Origin: Prochlorococcus sp. AG-679-M23 | Lineage (GTDB): Bacteria; Cyanobacteriota; Cyanobacteriia; PCC-6307; Cyanobiaceae | NCBI GenBank assembly: GCA_003208875.1 | Contig: QCUR01000007.1 | Coordinates: 1-64,000 of the forward strand | DNA: 64,000 bases | Reading direction: 5' to 3' | Shown here: positions 8,251-61,440 of the stretch, piece after piece | Numbering within the stretch: the stretch's first letter is position 1 | How the letters are laid out: each line of letters opens with the position of its first letter | Notes under the pieces: generated by a model | What the model saw: only the letters and a program-made list of their open reading frames with translations | Database searches by the model: none | What the model was told of the DNA's origin: nothing | Position numbers and translations under genes: made by a program

Positions 8251-9306
8251 ATGAAACTTAGATTATTTGAGTTCTATTTTATTAAAGACTACTTAAGGCC
8301 TTGGTTTGGTCTTATTTATTCTTTATTCTTTCTGTTTTTTTTAGGTGCTATTGGGTATCGAATTACAGAGGGATGGGATTGGGGTGATTGCTTATGGATG
8401 GTTCTGATCACAATAACCACAATTGGTTTTGGAGAAGTTCAAACTTTAAGTCCCGAAGGAAGAATTATCACTGTTCTAATAATCGTTGGTGGATTAATTT
8501 TTATTCAATTTACCTTTCAAAAAGCTGTTAGATTATTTGAATCCGGCTATTTTCAAAGAGTAAATGAATTACGCTTTAAAAGACTTCTAAGAAAAATGGA
8601 AAATCATGTAATTTTGTGCGGATATGGGAGGGTAGGTCAGGAAATATCTAATCAAATAAAAACACAAAATATTCCAATTATTGTTGTAGAAAGCGATGAA
8701 GATAGAAAAAAGATTGCTGAAGAAAATGGTTTAGAAGTACTTTGTGCCGATGCAACACTTGATGAAACTTTAAAGTTAGCTGGATTAGATAAGTGTAAAA
8801 GTTTAGTTGTTACCTTACCTAATGATGCTGCTAATTTATATGTCGTTTTAAGTGCTAAAGGGATAAGAAGTTCAATTAGAGTTATTGCTAGAGCTGGAAC
8901 GGAAGAAGCAGCTAGTAAATTGAGATTAGCTGGTGCAAGTATTGTTGTAAGTCCTTACATAGCAGCGGGAAGAGCTATGGCCTCAATGGCTTTAAGACCA
9001 ATAGCGATTGACTTTTTAGATTTATTGGCGGGAAGTGAATGTGAAATTGAAGAATTTGAATTAAGTAATGATATTAGCCTTTTTGAAACTGCAGAAAAGA
9101 TAACTCTTTTAGAGCTTGGAATAGGTAAAAAGAGTGGAGCAAAAATATTGGCAATAAAAGAAGATGAAAAGTTAATAACTAATCCTGGAGGAGATTTTTT
9201 ACTTCAGCCAGGTCAGGTATTAATTGCTTTTGGAAGTAAGGAACAACTAACTACCCTTAATAGGCTTTTAGGAAATCTTGTAGTTTCAGTTGAGCTTCTG
9301 AAATAG
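8251..9306 (+). CDS. potassium channel protein with RCK (TrkA-N/TrkA-C) domains
   Basis: TITTIGFGE selectivity filter, CGYGRVG NAD-binding RCK motif. Confidence 0.93.
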   Translation: MKLRLFEFYFIKDYLRPWFGLIYSLFFLFFLGAIGYRITEGWDWGDCLWMVLITITTIGFGEVQTLSPEGRIITVLIIVGGLIFIQFTFQKAVRLFESGYFQRVNELRFKRLLRKMENHVILCGYGRVGQEISNQIKTQNIPIIVVESDEDRKKIAEENGLEVLCADATLDETLKLAGLDKCKSLVVTLPNDAANLYVVLSAKGIRSSIRVIARAGTEEAASKLRLAGASIVVSPYIAAGRAMASMALRPIAIDFLDLLAGSECEIEEFELSNDISLFETAEKITLLELGIGKKSGAKILAIKEDEKLITNPGGDFLLQPGQVLIAFGSKEQLTTLNRLLGNLVVSVELLK

Positions 9307-9310
9307 ACAT

Positions 9311-9345
9311 ATCAAGAAATCTTGATTATATCAAAATATTTTGAT
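9311..9345. promoter_or_regulatory. tandem ArsR-type operator upstream of pstS
   Basis: ATCAA-gaaatc-TTGAT (9311-9326) and ATCAA-aatatt-TTGAT (9330-9345), 3 nt apart. Confidence 0.75.
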
Positions 9346-9417
9346 GCATTTCTTAATCTTTATTTTTCTTCCTTTGTTAGATGCTATAAATAAATTGTCT
9401 TTAATCTTAGGGTTGTC

Positions 9418-10389
9418 ATGAGCATTTTTAAAAAAGCTCTCATTTTCTCTTCTGCAATTTCATTAATACTTTCTCCATCTGCGATGGCATCAAAAAGATT
9501 GAGTGGGGCAGGTGCATCATTTCCCTCGAAAATTTATACAAGATGGTTTTTTGATCTTGCTAAAGCTGGAGGTCCTAGGGTGAATTATCAGGCTGTGGGA
9601 TCAGGTTCTGGAAGAAAGGCTTTTATTGATGAAACCGTGAATTTTGGAGCTTCAGATGATCCGATGAAAGATTCTGATATACAAAAAGTTACTAGAGGAC
9701 TTGTACAAATACCGATGATAGGTGGAACAATCGCGTTTGGATATAACTATGATTGCGATTTGAAATTAACTCAAGAGCAGGCTGTTCAAGTAGCAATGGG
9801 AATGATAAAAAATTGGAAGGAATTAGGATGTAAGTCAGGTAAATTAACTTGGTCACATCGTTCCGATGGTTCAGGCACGACTAAAGCTTTTACAAATTCT
9901 ATGGAGGCTTTTTCTAAAACTTGGAATTTAGGTACTGGTAAATCGGTTAAGTGGCCTGCGGGAGTGGGAGCTAAAGGTAATTCTGGTGTCGCGGGTGTTA
10001 TACAAAATACTCCCGGAGCAATTGGTTATGTTAATCAATCATATATAAAAGGAAATGTAAGGGCTGCAGCTTTACAAAATCTTTCTGGTGAATTTGTTAC
10101 TCCGAATACTAAGTCAGGCGCAATAGCTTTAAATGGAATAAATCTTGATAAGAACCTAGCTGGTAAAAATCCCAACCCTACAGCTAAAGGAGCTTATCCA
10201 ATAGCGACCTTAACTTGGATACTTGCTTATGAAAAGGGTAATGGCAGAAATACTAAGGCAATTCAAGATACGTTCTACAAATTGCTCAGCGATGAATACC
10301 AATCAAAAGCACCTGCCTTAGGTTTCGTACCCTTGAAAGGAGAAATTCTAAAAAAATCAATTGATGCTGTTGGAAGAATAGGAAGGTAA
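9418..10389 (+). CDS. pstS: phosphate ABC transporter substrate-binding protein PstS
   Basis: Signal peptide, GAGASFP, GSGSG, FGASD, RSDGSGTT motifs. Confidence 0.97.
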   Translation: MSIFKKALIFSSAISLILSPSAMASKRLSGAGASFPSKIYTRWFFDLAKAGGPRVNYQAVGSGSGRKAFIDETVNFGASDDPMKDSDIQKVTRGLVQIPMIGGTIAFGYNYDCDLKLTQEQAVQVAMGMIKNWKELGCKSGKLTWSHRSDGSGTTKAFTNSMEAFSKTWNLGTGKSVKWPAGVGAKGNSGVAGVIQNTPGAIGYVNQSYIKGNVRAAALQNLSGEFVTPNTKSGAIALNGINLDKNLAGKNPNPTAKGAYPIATLTWILAYEKGNGRNTKAIQDTFYKLLSDEYQSKAPALGFVPLKGEILKKSIDAVGRIGR

Positions 10390-11613
10390 TTTAGAACTAG
10401 TAAGCCAAGCAATAAAAATCAAAATAGATGAAGTATATAAACAATATTGCATACCTATAGTGGCATTTTTACCGAGCATAAATAATAAGCCAGATAGCAA
10501 TGTTCCTAATAATCTTCCCGCGGCATTAGCCATATAGTAATAACCAACATTTAAACTTACTTTCTCATTATCTGAATAAGCCAAAATCAAGTACGAATGA
10601 GTAGATGAATTCATTGCAAAAATAAATCCGAATATTATTAATCCAATAACAATTACAGGGCCTAATGATTTATCGCCGTTTAAAGCTCCAGCAATAAATA
10701 AAGGAATAACCGTCAAGATAAGTCCCCAAAATTGAACTGTAGTTTTTGATGGGCTGTTATTTTTTCCCCATACTTTTCTAAGTAATGGAGCTAATACTTG
10801 AAAGAAACCATAGATTATTATCCATCCACCCAAAAATAGTCCTATTTTTAAATAATCCCATCCAAAAGAAATGTCTAAAAAGACTGGAAGAGCTACTACA
10901 AACCAGACATCTCTTGCTCCAAATAAGAAAAACCTTGCACTTGAAAGAATATTTATACCTTGAGACTTTGAATAAAGGTCTTTAAAAATTGGCTTTCTTT
11001 TCATTTTCCCTGAATCTTTAGGAAGACATAAAGTTAAAAAGAATGCGAAGCATAGACCTAAACCCATTATTCCGACTGCACTATTAAAGCCCAATAGCTT
11101 ATATAAGAGACCCCCTAAGAAGAAGCCAACACCCTTAAGTGCATTTTTAGATCCTGTTAAAATTGAAACCCACTTAAATAATTGTTTTTGACTATTTTGA
11201 TTATTCTCTTCTGAATCTGGAACTATTGATTTAACTGCACTTTTTGCACTCATTTTATTTAAATCTTTTGCTACCCCACTAAGAGCTTGGGCTAACATAA
11301 CGTATGAGACGCTAAAGATTACTGACCAATTCTCTTTGACTGGAATCAGCATGAAAAGAGCAAGAATTTGCAAAATTGTTCCTATCCATAAAGTAAGTCT
11401 TAAACCATATCTTGCTCCTATCCAGCCTCCAAAAAGATTTGTAATTATTCCAAAAAACTCATAGAAAAGAAAAAGTAAAGCAATTTGCAGAGTTGAATAA
11501 CCAAGTTCATGAAAATGACCAACAACTAGTATTCTCAATGCACCGTCAGTAAGAGTAAATGCCCAATAGTTTGCGGTAACGACACTATATTGTTGAAGAC
11601 TAGATAACTTCAT
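10357..11613 (-). CDS. arsJ: organoarsenical efflux MFS transporter ArsJ
   Basis: NYWAFTLTDGALR, KDLNKMSAKS, LTGSKNALKG, FLFGARDVWFVVALPVFL; adjacent to GAPDH. Confidence 0.92.
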   Translation of the reverse strand: MKLSSLQQYSVVTANYWAFTLTDGALRILVVGHFHELGYSTLQIALLFLFYEFFGIITNLFGGWIGARYGLRLTLWIGTILQILALFMLIPVKENWSVIFSVSYVMLAQALSGVAKDLNKMSAKSAVKSIVPDSEENNQNSQKQLFKWVSILTGSKNALKGVGFFLGGLLYKLLGFNSAVGIMGLGLCFAFFLTLCLPKDSGKMKRKPIFKDLYSKSQGINILSSARFFLFGARDVWFVVALPVFLDISFGWDYLKIGLFLGGWIIIYGFFQVLAPLLRKVWGKNNSPSKTTVQFWGLILTVIPLFIAGALNGDKSLGPVIVIGLIIFGFIFAMNSSTHSYLILAYSDNEKVSLNVGYYYMANAAGRLLGTLLSGLLFMLGKNATIGMQYCLYTSSILIFIAWLTSSKLPSYSSNSIN

Positions 11614-11618
11614 AAAAA

Positions 11619-12647
11619 CTAAAATTTATTTTCTTTCTCAATTACATAAGAAGTAAGATCTGCAAGCCTGCAACTATAACCCCACTCATTGTCATACCAA
11701 GCATAAACCTTTAATAAATTTGAATTTACAACCATCGTTGAAAGTCCATCAATTATTGAACTTCTACAGTCATTTAAGTAATCAGCTGATACTAAGGGTC
11801 TCTCTTCGTATCCAAGAATACCTTTTAAGTATGTTTCAGATGCTTTTTTAAGTTCATTATTTACTTGCTCTTCAGTTACTTCCTTATTTAATTCAAAAAC
11901 CACATCGGTTAATGAGGCGTTTAGAAGTGGAACCCTTACTGCATGACCATTTAGTTTTCCTTCCAATTCAGGGAAAATTTCAGCAATCGCTTTAGCTGAT
12001 CCAGTTGTAGTAGGTATTAAGCTTTGCATGCATCCTCTTGCTCTTCTCAAGTCACTTTTGTAAAAATCTACTGGTGCTTGTGTATTTGTAACGTTATGAA
12101 TAGTTGTTATGACCCCATGTTTAATTGAGAAATTTTCATTAACAACTTTTACGATGGGGGCCAAGCAATTTGTAGTACAGGACGCTGCAGTAATTAATTT
12201 ATGTTTATCAGCTTTATAAAGGGCTTGATTAATTCCATAAACAATATTAAGTGCTTGTTCCCCTCCCACAATTCCTTTTACAGGACAAGCAACTATTACT
12301 TTTTTTATTCCAAGATGATCAAAATATGGATTTAATTCTTCGGGAGATTTATTTTTCCCTGTACATTCCAAAACAAGATCAACCGAAGATTTATTCCATG
12401 GAACATCAAGATAGTTCTTTGTTGATGTAAAGGAAATTTTTTTACCTTCAATCATTATTTCGTTGTCATTCGAAGTTATATCTTTATTCCATCTACCATG
12501 AACAGAATCAAACTCTAGGAGATGAGATGCAATTAAAGAATTCCCACTTATTTCATTTATATGAGTTATTTCTATATCTTTTCTTTCCCATAAAATTCTT
12601 AAAACTAACCTCCCAATTCTTCCAAATCCGTTAATTCCAATTTTCAT
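11619..12647 (-). CDS. gap: ArsJ-associated glyceraldehyde-3-phosphate dehydrogenase
   Basis: [36 protein letters not shown]; co-oriented directly upstream of arsJ. Confidence 0.93.
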
Positions 12648-12676
12648 AACAAATATTGAAAACTGCTTTATTATAT

Positions 12677-12710
12677 ATCAAAAATAATTGATGTATCAAT
12701 AATTCTTGAT
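12677..12710. promoter_or_regulatory. tandem ArsR operator in gap/arsR divergent promoter
   Basis: ATCAA-aaataa-TTGAT (12677-12692) and ATCAA-taattc-TTGAT (12695-12710), matching the cyanobacterial ArsR ATCAA-N6-TTGAT site. Confidence 0.85.
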
Positions 12711-12758
12711 ATGTGTAATTAATTTTTTTAGGTTAATATTTAAGAAGTTAATTATCTT

Positions 12759-13082
12759 TTGATTTTGTTAGAACAACTTAAAAAGATTAATAGTGAGCAA
12801 TTTATTAAGATAATGGAGTCCCTCTCAGATCCGATCAGAATAAATATTCTTGAATTAATGATGGGTGGAGAGATATGCGTTTGCGACATAGTTAAAGTAA
12901 CTGGATTATCTCAATCTAGAATTTCTTATCACGTAAAGATCCTAAAAGATTCAGGTCTTATCTCTGATAGACAAGAGGGTAGATGGGTTTACTACAAATT
13001 AGATTTGGAAGTATTATCAGATATTAAAAATTGGATGGGTAATTTAATTCAATCATCATCGAACAAGAGAACTTGTAAATAA
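12759..13082 (+). CDS. arsR: ArsR/SmtB family As(III)-responsive repressor
   Basis: LSDPIR...EICVCDI...SQSRISYHVKILKDSGLI...GRWVYY. Confidence 0.92.
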   Translation: MILLEQLKKINSEQFIKIMESLSDPIRINILELMMGGEICVCDIVKVTGLSQSRISYHVKILKDSGLISDRQEGRWVYYKLDLEVLSDIKNWMGNLIQSSSNKRTCK

Positions 13083-13160
13083 TCAAATATCCAAATTTTG
13101 ACTTTTCTGGAAGTCTTTTTGCTCATTTAGTAGTAGATTTATAAAGATATTCTTTTTTTA

Positions 13161-14108
13161 ATGGAAGAGAAATTAGCTCTTTTCAAGAATCGAAAAAGAT
13201 TCGGAATTGAAAAAAATATAGATATTATTTTTAAGAATACTGCTCTAGTCTTGTCTAGTTTTGTAGCGATCATACTTTTAGGAATTGTTTTAGTAGTCTT
13301 TTTTCAGTCATTTGAATCATTCTCAAGGTATGGTCTAAAGTTTCTTGTGACCTCTGAATGGAATCCAGTAAAAGATGAATATGGTGCATTTACCGCAATA
13401 TATGGAACATTAATAACCTCTTTTCTTTCATTATTGATAACTATTCCATTGGGGGTAGGAACCGCAATATTTATAACAGAGGATTTTGTTCCTAAAGTCT
13501 TTAGAGAAATAATAGGATCTTTTGTTGAACTTTTAGCTGCTATACCTTCAGTCGTATTGGGATTATGGGCAATATTTGTGATGGAACCTTTTTTTAGGGC
13601 CTTTTTTGTCTTTTTACATAATTTCTTTGGCTGGGTTCCTTTATTTAGTACAGAACCTACTGGCAGGAATTCCTTGCTGGCGATATTGATTTTAGTTGTA
13701 ATGCTTTTACCAATCGTGACCTCTATTGCTAGAGATTCTCTTAATCAAGTACCTAAAAAACTTAGAAATGCTTCTTATGGAATTGGAGCTAGTAGGTGGA
13801 AAACAATTTTTTCAGTAATTTTGCCAGCTGCATTATCAGGAATTATGGCTGGAGTTTTATTAGCTTTAGGTAGGGCCATGGGAGAAACTATGGCTGTCAC
13901 AATGATTATCGGAAACTCTAATGCATTTAGTTGGTCTTTATTATCTCCTGGATATACTATTTCTTCCATGCTCGCAAATCAATTTGGAGAAGCTGATGGA
14001 AGTCAAGTTTCCTCATTGTTTTATGCAGCATTTGTTCTGATGATTTTATCTTTGGTGGTAAATATCTTTGCTCAATGGCTAGTTAAGAAATTTAGTCTCA
14101 AATATTAG
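13161..14108 (+). CDS. pstC: phosphate ABC transporter permease PstC
   Basis: ELLAAIPSVVLGLW, GRAMGETMAV. Confidence 0.97.
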   Translation: MEEKLALFKNRKRFGIEKNIDIIFKNTALVLSSFVAIILLGIVLVVFFQSFESFSRYGLKFLVTSEWNPVKDEYGAFTAIYGTLITSFLSLLITIPLGVGTAIFITEDFVPKVFREIIGSFVELLAAIPSVVLGLWAIFVMEPFFRAFFVFLHNFFGWVPLFSTEPTGRNSLLAILILVVMLLPIVTSIARDSLNQVPKKLRNASYGIGASRWKTIFSVILPAALSGIMAGVLLALGRAMGETMAVTMIIGNSNAFSWSLLSPGYTISSMLANQFGEADGSQVSSLFYAAFVLMILSLVVNIFAQWLVKKFSLKY

Positions 14109-14113
14109 ATATT

Positions 14114-15007
14114 ATGAATTCACTTTTTTACCAGAAAAATTCATCTCGAAATATAGGAGATAAAGTTTTTACCTCTTTGTCTTTAATCTGTGTAGTTATA
14201 GCAATACTTCCTTTGATTTTTTTGGTAACTTATATTCTTATTAAAGGTGGGGCACAGATTACTCCTGATTTGTTTACTTTAGAACCAAATCCTCCTGGAG
14301 ATGATTTAGATGCTGGTGGAATTAACCCTGCATTAATCGGGACATTAATAATCACAACCATTGCTTCAATTATTGCGATACCAGTAGGTGTCGGGGGTGG
14401 TATTTATCTAGCTGAATATTCAAAAGGAGGACCTTTTTCAAGGTTTATTAGATTTGGAGTTAATGTTTTAGCTGGTGTTCCTTCAATAATTGCAGGTGTA
14501 TTTATTTATGCATTAATCGTTTCTACCAAAATTTTATTTGGAAGTATGTATAGTGGCTTAGCTGGAGGAATGGCGCTTTCAATATTGATGTTGCCTACTG
14601 TTATAAAAACAACTGATGAGGGTTTAAAGTTAGTACCAAATGAATTAAGGTACGCTTCTCTTGGAGTAGGCGCAAGTATGTATACAACAATATTAAAAAT
14701 AACCTTACCCTCAGCTTTTCGGTCTATTGCAACTGGTGTCGTACTTGGTATAGCTAGGGCTGCGGGAGAAACTGCTCCATTAATTTTTACTGCTTTATTT
14801 TCTTACTACTACATAACTGGATTTGGTGATTTGTTTTATGAAATGGGATCTCTTGCCGTTTTAATTTATAATTTTGCTTTAGAACCATATGATGCTCAAA
14901 ATAAACTTGCTTGGGCGGCATCATTCATCCTTGTTTTGTCTATTCTTTCTGTAAATATATTTTCAAGAATTTTAGCCGCATTTACAGAGCAGACTAAGAG
15001 GGTATGA
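14114..15007 (+). CDS. pstA: phosphate ABC transporter permease PstA
   Basis: [18 protein letters not shown]. Confidence 0.97.
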
Positions 15008-15008
15008 A

Positions 15009-15818
15009 ATGATTAAAAATACTAAAAAAGCTCAAAAGAAAAATATTTTATCTCTTGAGGATGTTTCTATTAGTTATGGAAAAAATGAAGCAATTAAAAA
15101 TGTTTTTTGTGAGTTTAAGAAAGGAGATATAACTTCACTTATTGGACCTTCAGGTTGTGGTAAATCAACTGTCCTAAGATCCTTAAATCGAATGAATGAC
15201 CTAATTCCAAATTGCTCGTTAAAAGGTACAGTTCTTTTTGATGGAACGAATATTTATGATAAAAGAGTTGATCCAGTTGAAGTTAGAAGAAGGATTGGAA
15301 TGGTTTTTCAACAACCTAATCCTTTTCCAAAATCTATTTATGAAAATATTGCATTTGGAGCAAGAATTAATGGATTTGTAGGGGATATGGACGATTTGGT
15401 GGAACTATCGCTTAAAAAGGCTGCTTTATGGGATGAGTGCAAGGATAAATTAAATGAGAGTGGTTACTCCTTATCTGGAGGACAGCAACAAAGACTATGT
15501 ATAGCAAGAACAATAGCAATCGAACCTGAAATAATACTTATGGACGAGCCATGCTCAGCATTAGATCCTATTTCAACTTTAAAAATAGAAGAAACAATGC
15601 ACGAACTAAAGAAGAATTACACGATAATAATAGTTACTCATAATATGCAGCAGGCTTTAAGAGTAAGTGATATGACTGCATTTTTTAATGCAATTGCATT
15701 TGACGATGGTTTTGATGGTAAGGTTGGTTATCTAGCTGAATTCAATTCTACAAAGAAGATTTTTAGTTCTCCTAAGGAAAAAACAACTCAAGAATATATC
15801 TCAGGGAAATTCGGATAA
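15009..15818 (+). CDS. pstB: phosphate ABC transporter ATP-binding protein PstB
   Basis: [38 protein letters not shown]. Confidence 0.97.
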
Positions 15819-60144: not shown

Positions 60145-61440
60145 ATGAAGCGTGTGTTGGCAATCATCCTCGGAGGAGGAAAAGGTTCTAGGCTTTATCC
60201 CTTAACAAAAATGAGGGCTAAACCTGCAGTTCCTTTAGCAGGTAAATATCGTTTGATTGATATCCCAATTAGTAACTGTATTAATTCTGGGATTAATAAA
60301 ATGTACGTTTTAACTCAGTTTAATAGTGCTTCTCTTAATAGACATATTGGGAGAACCTACAATTTAAGTGCCCCTTTTGGGCAAGGATTTGTGGAGGTAC
60401 TAGCTGCTCAGCAAACTCCTGATAGTCCAAAGTGGTTTGAAGGTACTGCTGATGCAGTAAGAAAATATCAATGGTTGTTTCAAGAGTGGGATGTGGACGA
60501 ATATTTAATATTATCTGGTGATCAGCTCTATAGAATGGACTATAGTTTATTTGTTCAACACCATAGAGATAATAAAGCTGATTTAACAGTAGCTGCCTTA
60601 CCTGTTGATGAATCTCAGGCTGAAGGTTTTGGGCTTATGAGAACAGATGATTTGGGTAATATTAAAGAATTTAGTGAAAAGCCAACTGGTGAGAAATTAA
60701 AATCAATGGCGGTTGATACCTCTAAGTTCGGATTAACAAAGGAATCGGCATCAGAGAAACCGTATCTTGCCTCTATGGGTATTTATGTTTTTAGTAGAAA
60801 GACACTTTTTGATCTCTTAAATAAGTTCCCTAGTTATACAGATTTTGGTAAAGATATAATCCCTGAGGCATTAAGTAGAGGGGATACATTAAAGAGTTAT
60901 GTTTTTGATGATTATTGGGAAGATATAGGAACTATAGGAGCATTTTTTGAATCAAACTTAGCATTAACACAACAACCAAAACCTCCGTTTAGTTTTTATG
61001 ATGAAAAATTTCCTATATATACTAGGCCTAGATATCTTCCTCCATCAAAACTTGTAGATGCTCAAATTACTGATTCAATAGTTTGTGAAGGAACTATTTT
61101 GAAATCTTGTAGCATCTTGCATTGTGTCTTAGGGGTGAGAAGTAGAATTGAAAGTGATTCTGTTATTGAAGATACTCTTGTAATGGGATCTGATTTTTTT
61201 GAATCGCTAGAAGAGAGGATTGAATTAAGAAAAGGTGGTGGTACTCCTCTTGGAGTAGGAGAAGGTTCAACTATAAAAAGGGCAATTCTTGATAAGAATG
61301 CAAGAATTGGAGATAATGTGGTGATAGTAAATAAAGATAGAGTAGAAGAAGCAGATAAACCAGATCTAGGATTTTATATAAGAAATGGAATTGTTGTTGT
61401 AGTTAAAAATGCAACTATTGCTAACGGAACAATTATTTAA
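60145..61440 (+). CDS. glgC: glucose-1-phosphate adenylyltransferase
   Basis: [31 protein letters not shown]. Confidence 0.98.

Follow-up and report, generated by a model that had tools for sequence, protein, structure and literature searches.

Predicted ArsR operators before pstS and between gap-arsJ and arsR in a Prochlorococcus genome without PhoB and PhoR

Results

Genes and palindromes at the pstS locus

The window analysed here is a stretch of 64,000 nucleotides (nt) from Prochlorococcus sp. AG-679-M23 (contig QCUR01000007.1), and its element of interest is a pair of tandem palindromes, ATCAA-N6-TTGAT, upstream of pstS, the gene for the phosphate-binding protein. An equivalent pair lies between gap and arsR, in a locus where pstS is followed by arsJ, gap and arsR and then by pstC, pstA and pstB (Table 1). 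Our analysis suggests that a single arsenic-sensing repressor, ArsR, acts at both pairs, and would thereby link arsenate export to phosphate uptake.

PstS gives an equivalog-level match and is 84–96% identical to the core PstS of relatives, and arsJ and the ArsJ-associated gap, which adjoin on the same strand, qualify together as a GAPDH/ArsJ arsenate-efflux pair. ArsR is a winged-helix protein of the HTH_5 family (Pfam PF01022, E = 7e-16; NCBIfam NF033788, 88.9 bits against a cut-off of 55), the only one in its genome, with SmtB as its closest solved relative (E = 1.8e-11). The As(III)-binding CVC motif pointed out in the earlier note lies in helix α3, within ICVCD at residues 39–43. C40, V41 and C42 are invariant in nine operator-linked ArsRs, as are the recognition-helix residues Q52, S53, S56, H58 and K60, and all nine have a Cys near the C-terminus.

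Sites were defined as exact ATCAA-N6-TTGAT palindromes, with the reversed pattern as control. The four palindromes of the earlier note are all exact, and 72 nt separate the end of the pstS pair (9345) from the start codon at 9418. Five exact sites are present in the window against 0.5 expected from shuffles (0/100 shuffles reach 5), and 19 in the whole genome of 1,645,990 bp, of which 14 lie in long open reading frames (ORFs). The reversed pattern occurs 9 times per 1.65 Mb, in agreement with the chance rate of about 5e-6 per position that the note had estimated for a single site. Tandem pairs are found only twice in the entire genome, before pstS and between gap-arsJ and arsR; the note's observation that the window has no further pair therefore holds beyond the window. 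The fifth window site (60702–60717) is single and lies within a 431-residue ORF, and another exact single palindrome is intergenic (G000:C3:159237) beside unrelated genes of the same genome; both are probably due to chance.

Table 1 Features of the pstS locus in the window
Feature	Position	Strand	Description
K+ channel gene	8251–9306	+	
Distal predicted ArsR box before pstS	9311..9326		Exact; also exact in 10 cassette-type pstS promoters with both boxes exact
Proximal predicted ArsR box before pstS	9330..9345		Exact; 3-nt linker, 19 bp centre to centre
Inferred extended -10 of pstS, TGcTATAAA	9382..9390	+	39 nt 3' of the boxes; read from sequence
pstS	9418..10389	+	Single copy in genome; NCBIfam TIGR00975, 218.1 bits (cut-off 205)
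arsJ (MFS organoarsenical efflux)	10357..11613	-	NCBIfam MFS_ArsJ NF033734, 553.7 bits (cut-off 400)
gap, ArsJ-associated (glyceraldehyde-3-phosphate dehydrogenase, GAPDH)	11619..12647	-	NCBIfam G3PDH_Arsen NF033735, 538.2 bits (cut-off 450)
Predicted gap-arsJ promoter	12670..12699	-	-35 TTGATA, 18 nt, -10 TATAAT (11/12 matches)
Predicted ArsR box, gap side	12677..12692		Exact
Predicted ArsR box, arsR side	12695..12710		Exact; 2-nt linker, 18 bp centre to centre
arsR	12759..13082	+	Sole ArsR/SmtB-family gene of the genome; CVC motif and C-terminal Cys
Decayed third box between arsR and pstC	13089..13102		Lost by one substitution and a 2-nt loss
pstC, pstA, pstB	13161..15818	+	78 nt 3' of arsR

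Association of the palindrome with arsenic genes

The exact tandem pair occurs in 21 of 401 cyanobacterial genomes, against 1 of 401 for the reversed control, which also hits 0 of 41 genomes in a separate search. Outside the genus there are 11 matches, every one of which flanks arsR, gap, acr3/SBF or a PstS-like gene: the pair lies upstream of an acr3-type (SBF) gene at three loci (L066, L067, L068), between acr3 and gap at one (L071), between arsR and gap at four (L072, L083, L084, L085), and directly before a PstS-like binding-protein gene at the remaining three (L069 and L070, downstream of arsR, and L082). When the 1.26 kb upstream of acr3 was scanned in 80 named cyanobacterial loci, at least one exact box was found in 36/80 and a tandem pair in 7/80, with 0/80 for the reversed control. 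The acr3 operon of Synechocystis salina LEGE 00031 has two exact boxes, 29 bp apart, which bracket the region from the TTGACA -35 element to the acr3 start codon; with acr3 followed by 216-residue and 131-residue ORFs, the operon fits arsB-arsH-arsC by gene order and size. Tandem ATCAA-N6-TTGAT is reportedly the ArsR operator of the Synechocystis arsBHC operon, as the earlier note states, and the S. salina boxes agree with this. We read ATCAA-N6-TTGAT, on the strength of its gene neighbourhoods, as the cyanobacterial ArsR box.

A movable cassette with pstS and its predicted operator

About 20 kb around pstS copies was taken from 40 loci of the genus, together with 6 further loci. Among 24 relatives in the genus, 10 have the exact tandem pair and none matches the reversed control. 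The pstS promoters are of three classes. Class 1 has the tandem pair, 39 nt and a conserved TGcTATAAA, with the ATG 72 nt after the boxes, and its PstS is 94–100% identical to that of the window. It is always part of a unit OO-pstS / arsJ-gap-OO-arsR (OO, tandem pair). In G210, G068, G165, G002 and G003 this unit lies outside the core pst locus and is preceded by other genes; in the window, in G060 and G137, and probably in G163 and G016, it is flanked by the K+ channel gene and pstC. Class 2 is the core arrangement channel-pstS-pstCAB, with one exact ATCAAaataatTTGAT that usually abuts a TATAAA-like hexamer. Class 3 has TTAA-rich direct repeats instead of the palindrome, together with the TGcTATAAA of class 1. 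On the upstream side, loci of this class have phoB and phoR along with genes for a phytase-like phosphatase and a porin; on the downstream side are chrA-mfs-gap, arsR and genes for an SBF transporter and a CRP-like protein.

The pair lies at a constant distance from pstS in 10 loci, in which it follows any of three upstream neighbours, and it is retained at pstS where no channel gene is found in the 1.5 kb upstream (L006, L008). A pair that stays at constant distance before pstS while the upstream genes vary tracks pstS and not the K+ channel gene, one of the outcomes that the earlier note had left to a survey of the genus. It is therefore also no remnant of a lost neighbour, and the note's alternative, in which pstS became fused to the operator of a deleted gene such as phoB, was rejected. 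The half-sites are exact in every arsR-bearing cassette and the N6 spacers vary, a pattern that points to selection on the half-sites. By these comparisons OO-pstS / arsJ-gap-OO-arsR is a conserved, movable cassette, inserted in the window into the core pst locus.

Several loci depart from these arrangements. One cassette (L021, G111) lacks gap-arsJ and has an arsR match with a TAA stop, and both of its tandem pairs are exact. The core pstS of G044:C2 (L064/L065), with the K+ channel gene on one side and pstC on the other, gives a match in two pieces only (residues 136–274 and 268–323) and appears truncated and frameshifted. About 850 nt without annotation separate the K+ channel gene from the core pstS box in L024, L033, L036, L038, L039, L045 and L054; in other relatives this box begins 8 nt past the channel stop codon. 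No match to the window PstS at E <= 1e-20 was obtained in G184, G175 and G091, which are 96–99% complete.

Box integrity, arsR and phoB

The genome of the window is 99.99% complete and has one pstS and one arsR. Searches with a relative's proteins as queries returned no orthologue of PhoB, PhoR, PtrA, ChrA, an SBF/Acr3 transporter or the phosphatase in this genome, nor did it contain a match to TIGR00832 (Acr3). For PhoB and PhoR the best matches are paralogues, 41% and 27% identical, and none reaches E <= 1e-70; the absence of PhoB/PhoR noted for the locus thus extends to the genome. An ArsC-family gene and a low-molecular-weight (LMW) phosphatase-family gene are present, and directly upstream of them no site with up to one mismatch suggestive of regulation was found.

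The distribution of arsR and phoB was surveyed in 63 genus genomes of at least 95% completeness, in which the window's arsR type (at least 90% identity) could be told from a second type (56–61% identity). The window's type is present in 15 genomes, none of which has a phoB orthologue; the second type is present in 36, of which 34 have one. Among the 11 genomes in which arsR was not found, phoB is present in 2 (G072 and G175, both with matches at contig edges), and the single genome with only an arsR fragment (G221) has none.

In genomes with arsR the palindromes of the pstS promoter are all exact in 23 of 23 cases (9 of class 1 and 14 of class 2), whereas in genomes of at least 95% completeness without arsR found this is so in only 2 of 7, a contrast that is descriptive since the compared genomes are close kin and the counts not independent. 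G072, with arsR probably beyond its contig end, and G163, G005 and G048, assigned to neither group, were left out. The two exact cases are G059 and G018; G021 has one mismatch, G132 a 7-nt spacer and G225 one mismatch per box. In L022 (G024) the right half-site is TTGCT in either box, and L062 (G044) has one mismatch in one box. G024 and G044 retain a cassette-type pstS with these mutated boxes. Box integrity appears from this comparison to depend on the presence of arsR.

Promoter architecture

Both boxes between gap and arsR overlap the predicted gap-arsJ promoter, the best promoter match of the region, and their geometry fits the textbook arrangement for repression. At pstS the TGcTATAAA element, which recurs in phoB-bearing relatives at pstS promoters that lack the palindrome, would put the box centres at about -59 and -78 from the inferred start. 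From there a bound protein could either repress from upstream or activate, and the sequence does not tell the two apart. Repression is the likelier of the two in our reading, because members of the ArsR family are overwhelmingly repressors and the single box of class 2 stands in an occluding position. An octamer, CTTAATCT, at 9352–9359 resembles the Pho-box consensus, with no array like that of the phoB-bearing relatives.

Between arsR and pstC no terminator-like site was seen. Three relatives (G060, G137 and G016) have a third, single box at this place that is exact (L016 13558, L049 13579 and L003 1107), and in the window it has decayed; read-through from arsR, or a promoter of its own, is more likely for the pstCAB genes here. 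The 3' ends of pstS and arsJ are convergent and overlap by 33 nt (10357–10389) with no terminator between, an overlap retained in cassette-type loci of relatives, and co-induction of the two genes would yield overlapping antisense 3' ends. RNA contigs from four metatranscriptome runs over 8900–13400 cover the genes; transcript starts, strand and level are not readable from contigs, and the gaps that runs X6 and X13 leave over the two promoter regions carry no weight. One contig of run X1 joins the pstS end to the pstC leader (10389 to 13124) and skips 2734 nt (arsJ-gap-arsR), a weak hint, with 24 letters on its shorter side, that fits cassette-less relatives in the same waters.

Discussion

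Our data favour a model, with a probability of roughly 0.6, in which the four palindromes are sites of the single ArsR encoded at this locus, which would repress both gap-arsJ and pstS and be released by arsenite. Without arsenic, both tandem pairs would be filled by ArsR dimers; those before gap-arsJ would cover the -35 element and spacer of the promoter and block RNA polymerase, and at pstS, just upstream of the extended -10, they would lower promoter activity. Arsenite bound at the CVC site would free ArsR and turn on three units jointly, namely the GAPDH/ArsJ export pair, PstS, and arsR with pstCAB probably read through. From ArsR binding and repression at pstS to arsenite as effector and co-transcription of arsR with pstCAB, these steps are inferred from sequence. 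The cassette would act from within the core pst locus of a genome without PhoB/PhoR, PtrA, Acr3 or a second pstS, and the arsenic-sensing regulator probably also controls phosphate uptake in this genome. The earlier note's proposal of one ArsR operator before pstS and in the gap-arsJ/arsR promoter finds support in the linkage to ars genes across cyanobacteria, the tracking of pstS and the arsR-dependent integrity of the boxes. The note did not record that arsR directly precedes pstCAB, that the unit is a movable cassette, that relatives have a single box at the core pstS, or that this arsR type is confined to phoB-less genomes.

Several observations weigh against the model. The pstS boxes end 39 nt before the sole convincing -10, at roughly -47 to -81, which is not simple occlusion and would equally suit an activator. 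The box is not always lost with arsR, as the complete genomes G059 and G018 demonstrate, and the kinship of the compared genomes tempers the contrast that supports the model. Furthermore, the box at pstC is decayed in the window, and the lack of Acr3 leaves the source and fate of the arsenite signal unclear.

It is conceivable, though we think it unlikely, that ArsR binds both pairs but serves as activator or anti-repressor at pstS, so that arsenic would lower PstS and arsenate entry while raising GAPDH/ArsJ. Box centres near -59 and -78 are typical activator positions, the boxes stand where the pstS promoters of phoB-bearing relatives have TTAA-rich direct repeats, which we take to be Pho boxes, and arsenate enters through Pst (PMC11665274). 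Proteins of the ArsR/SmtB family are mostly repressors, however, the single box at the core pstS of relatives abuts a TATAAA-like hexamer in repressor geometry, and an extended -10 should need no activator. In E. coli the ArsR operator lies just upstream of the -35 element, which would be a precedent for upstream repression. The accessible part of PMC9134189 does not state the position of the wild-type E. coli operator.

Slightly less probable still is that the pstS palindromes are read by another factor, or are currently non-functional copies carried along with the cassette. The exact single box at the core pstS of the two arsR-less genomes and the unusual distance of the boxes to the -10 would agree with this, but every match of the tandem motif outside the genus is associated with ars genes, and in cassettes with arsR the N6 spacers vary but the half-sites are exact without exception. 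PtrA and CRP were rejected as binding factors: neither PtrA nor PhoB has an orthologue in the genome, and the sole CRP-like match is 33% identical over the HTH. That the palindromes form an RNA hairpin or terminator of the K+ channel gene, or arose by chance in AT-rich DNA, is very improbable. They do start 5 nt past the channel stop codon, but the RNA fold is no better than those of shuffles (-8.4 kcal/mol, z = -0.58), on which ground a hairpin function was rejected, loci with no channel gene seen upstream still have the pair at pstS, and the reversed-pattern controls are almost empty.

The proposed circuit can be compared with several known systems. ArsR of Synechocystis sp. PCC 6803 (Sll1957) is an ArsR/SmtB repressor of arsBHC that also controls a divergent neighbour gene, and in the accessible text on its arsR mutant only 5 genes, around arsBHC, are changed, with no pst gene named (PMC4010505). 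The window shares with arsBHC the ATCAA-N6-TTGAT half-sites and, as seen in S. salina, two copies at the promoter. Unlike the window, Synechocystis has an unlinked arsR with acr3-arsH-arsC as target and boxes 29 bp apart around the core promoter; in the window ArsR is predicted to act on gap-arsJ, on pstS and probably on pstCAB, the spacing of the boxes is 18–19 bp, and there is no acr3. The metalloid site, an α3 CVC motif, is that of the E. coli R773 and chromosomal ArsRs, from which the window differs in operator sequence, and arsJ and gap, set beside GAPDH-ArsJ of Pseudomonas aeruginosa, score as NCBIfam equivalogs.

Closer to the window are the cyanobacterial ars clusters with arsR, pstS/sphX, gap3 and an MFS gene, which have the same gene set. 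Huertas et al. 2014 list PstS, Gap3 and an MFS gene in such clusters and infer co-regulation by arsenic and ArsR from the order of arsR upstream of pstS (PMC4284471), and a Nodularia cluster arsR-sphX-gap-arsJ is annotated (PMC9846622). Two of the clusters in our survey have tandem boxes between arsR and the PstS-like gene (L069, L070). ArsR-PstS co-regulation was accordingly already predicted from gene order in other cyanobacteria, and the circuit proposed for the window is a variant of it. In those clusters, however, PstS is an extra paralogue in a one-direction ars operon of genomes with several pst systems, whereas pstS of the window is the sole copy, convergent to arsJ, with an operator pair of its own; its cassette is embedded in the core pst locus, and the genome lacks phoBR. 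The PhoB/PhoR-type relatives with a large phosphate island, whose gene names match the published Prochlorococcus island (PMC10504305), share a homologous pstS -10 region and leader (gatgcTATAAAt...gtcttt) and the neighbours gap, mfs and arsR with the window. They differ from it in having TTAA-rich direct repeats, no palindrome and phoB in the genome (34/36 with the second arsR type), in place of which the window has two ArsR boxes and no phoBR found. The literature searched, which included few subscription journals and excluded supplements, contained in its accessible text no ArsR boxes at Prochlorococcus pstS and no mutual exclusion of this arsR type and phoB.

Many open-ocean picocyanobacteria are without PhoB/PhoR, and how phosphate uptake is regulated there is unresolved. 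The present locus gives a testable answer, with a sequence-defined operator, one candidate regulator and a clear target set, and would put the genes for phosphorus acquisition and those for arsenic detoxification under common control at their promoters. A more far-reaching and rather doubtful possibility is that in picocyanobacteria that lost PhoB/PhoR, ArsR took over high-affinity phosphate uptake, with intracellular arsenic as a proxy for phosphate scarcity because arsenate entry via Pst would scale with the As:P ratio of the water. Release of ArsR would then raise PstS and arsenate export, and PstCAB via the third box in close relatives. In favour of such a takeover, the window's arsR type occurs only in phoB-less genomes, and its boxes occupy the place of the presumed Pho boxes of phoB-bearing relatives. 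In low-phosphate surface waters arsenate can rival phosphate, according to PMC11665274. If the circuit operates as proposed, expression of pstS in the field would, in these lineages, report arsenic exposure as well as phosphate stress.

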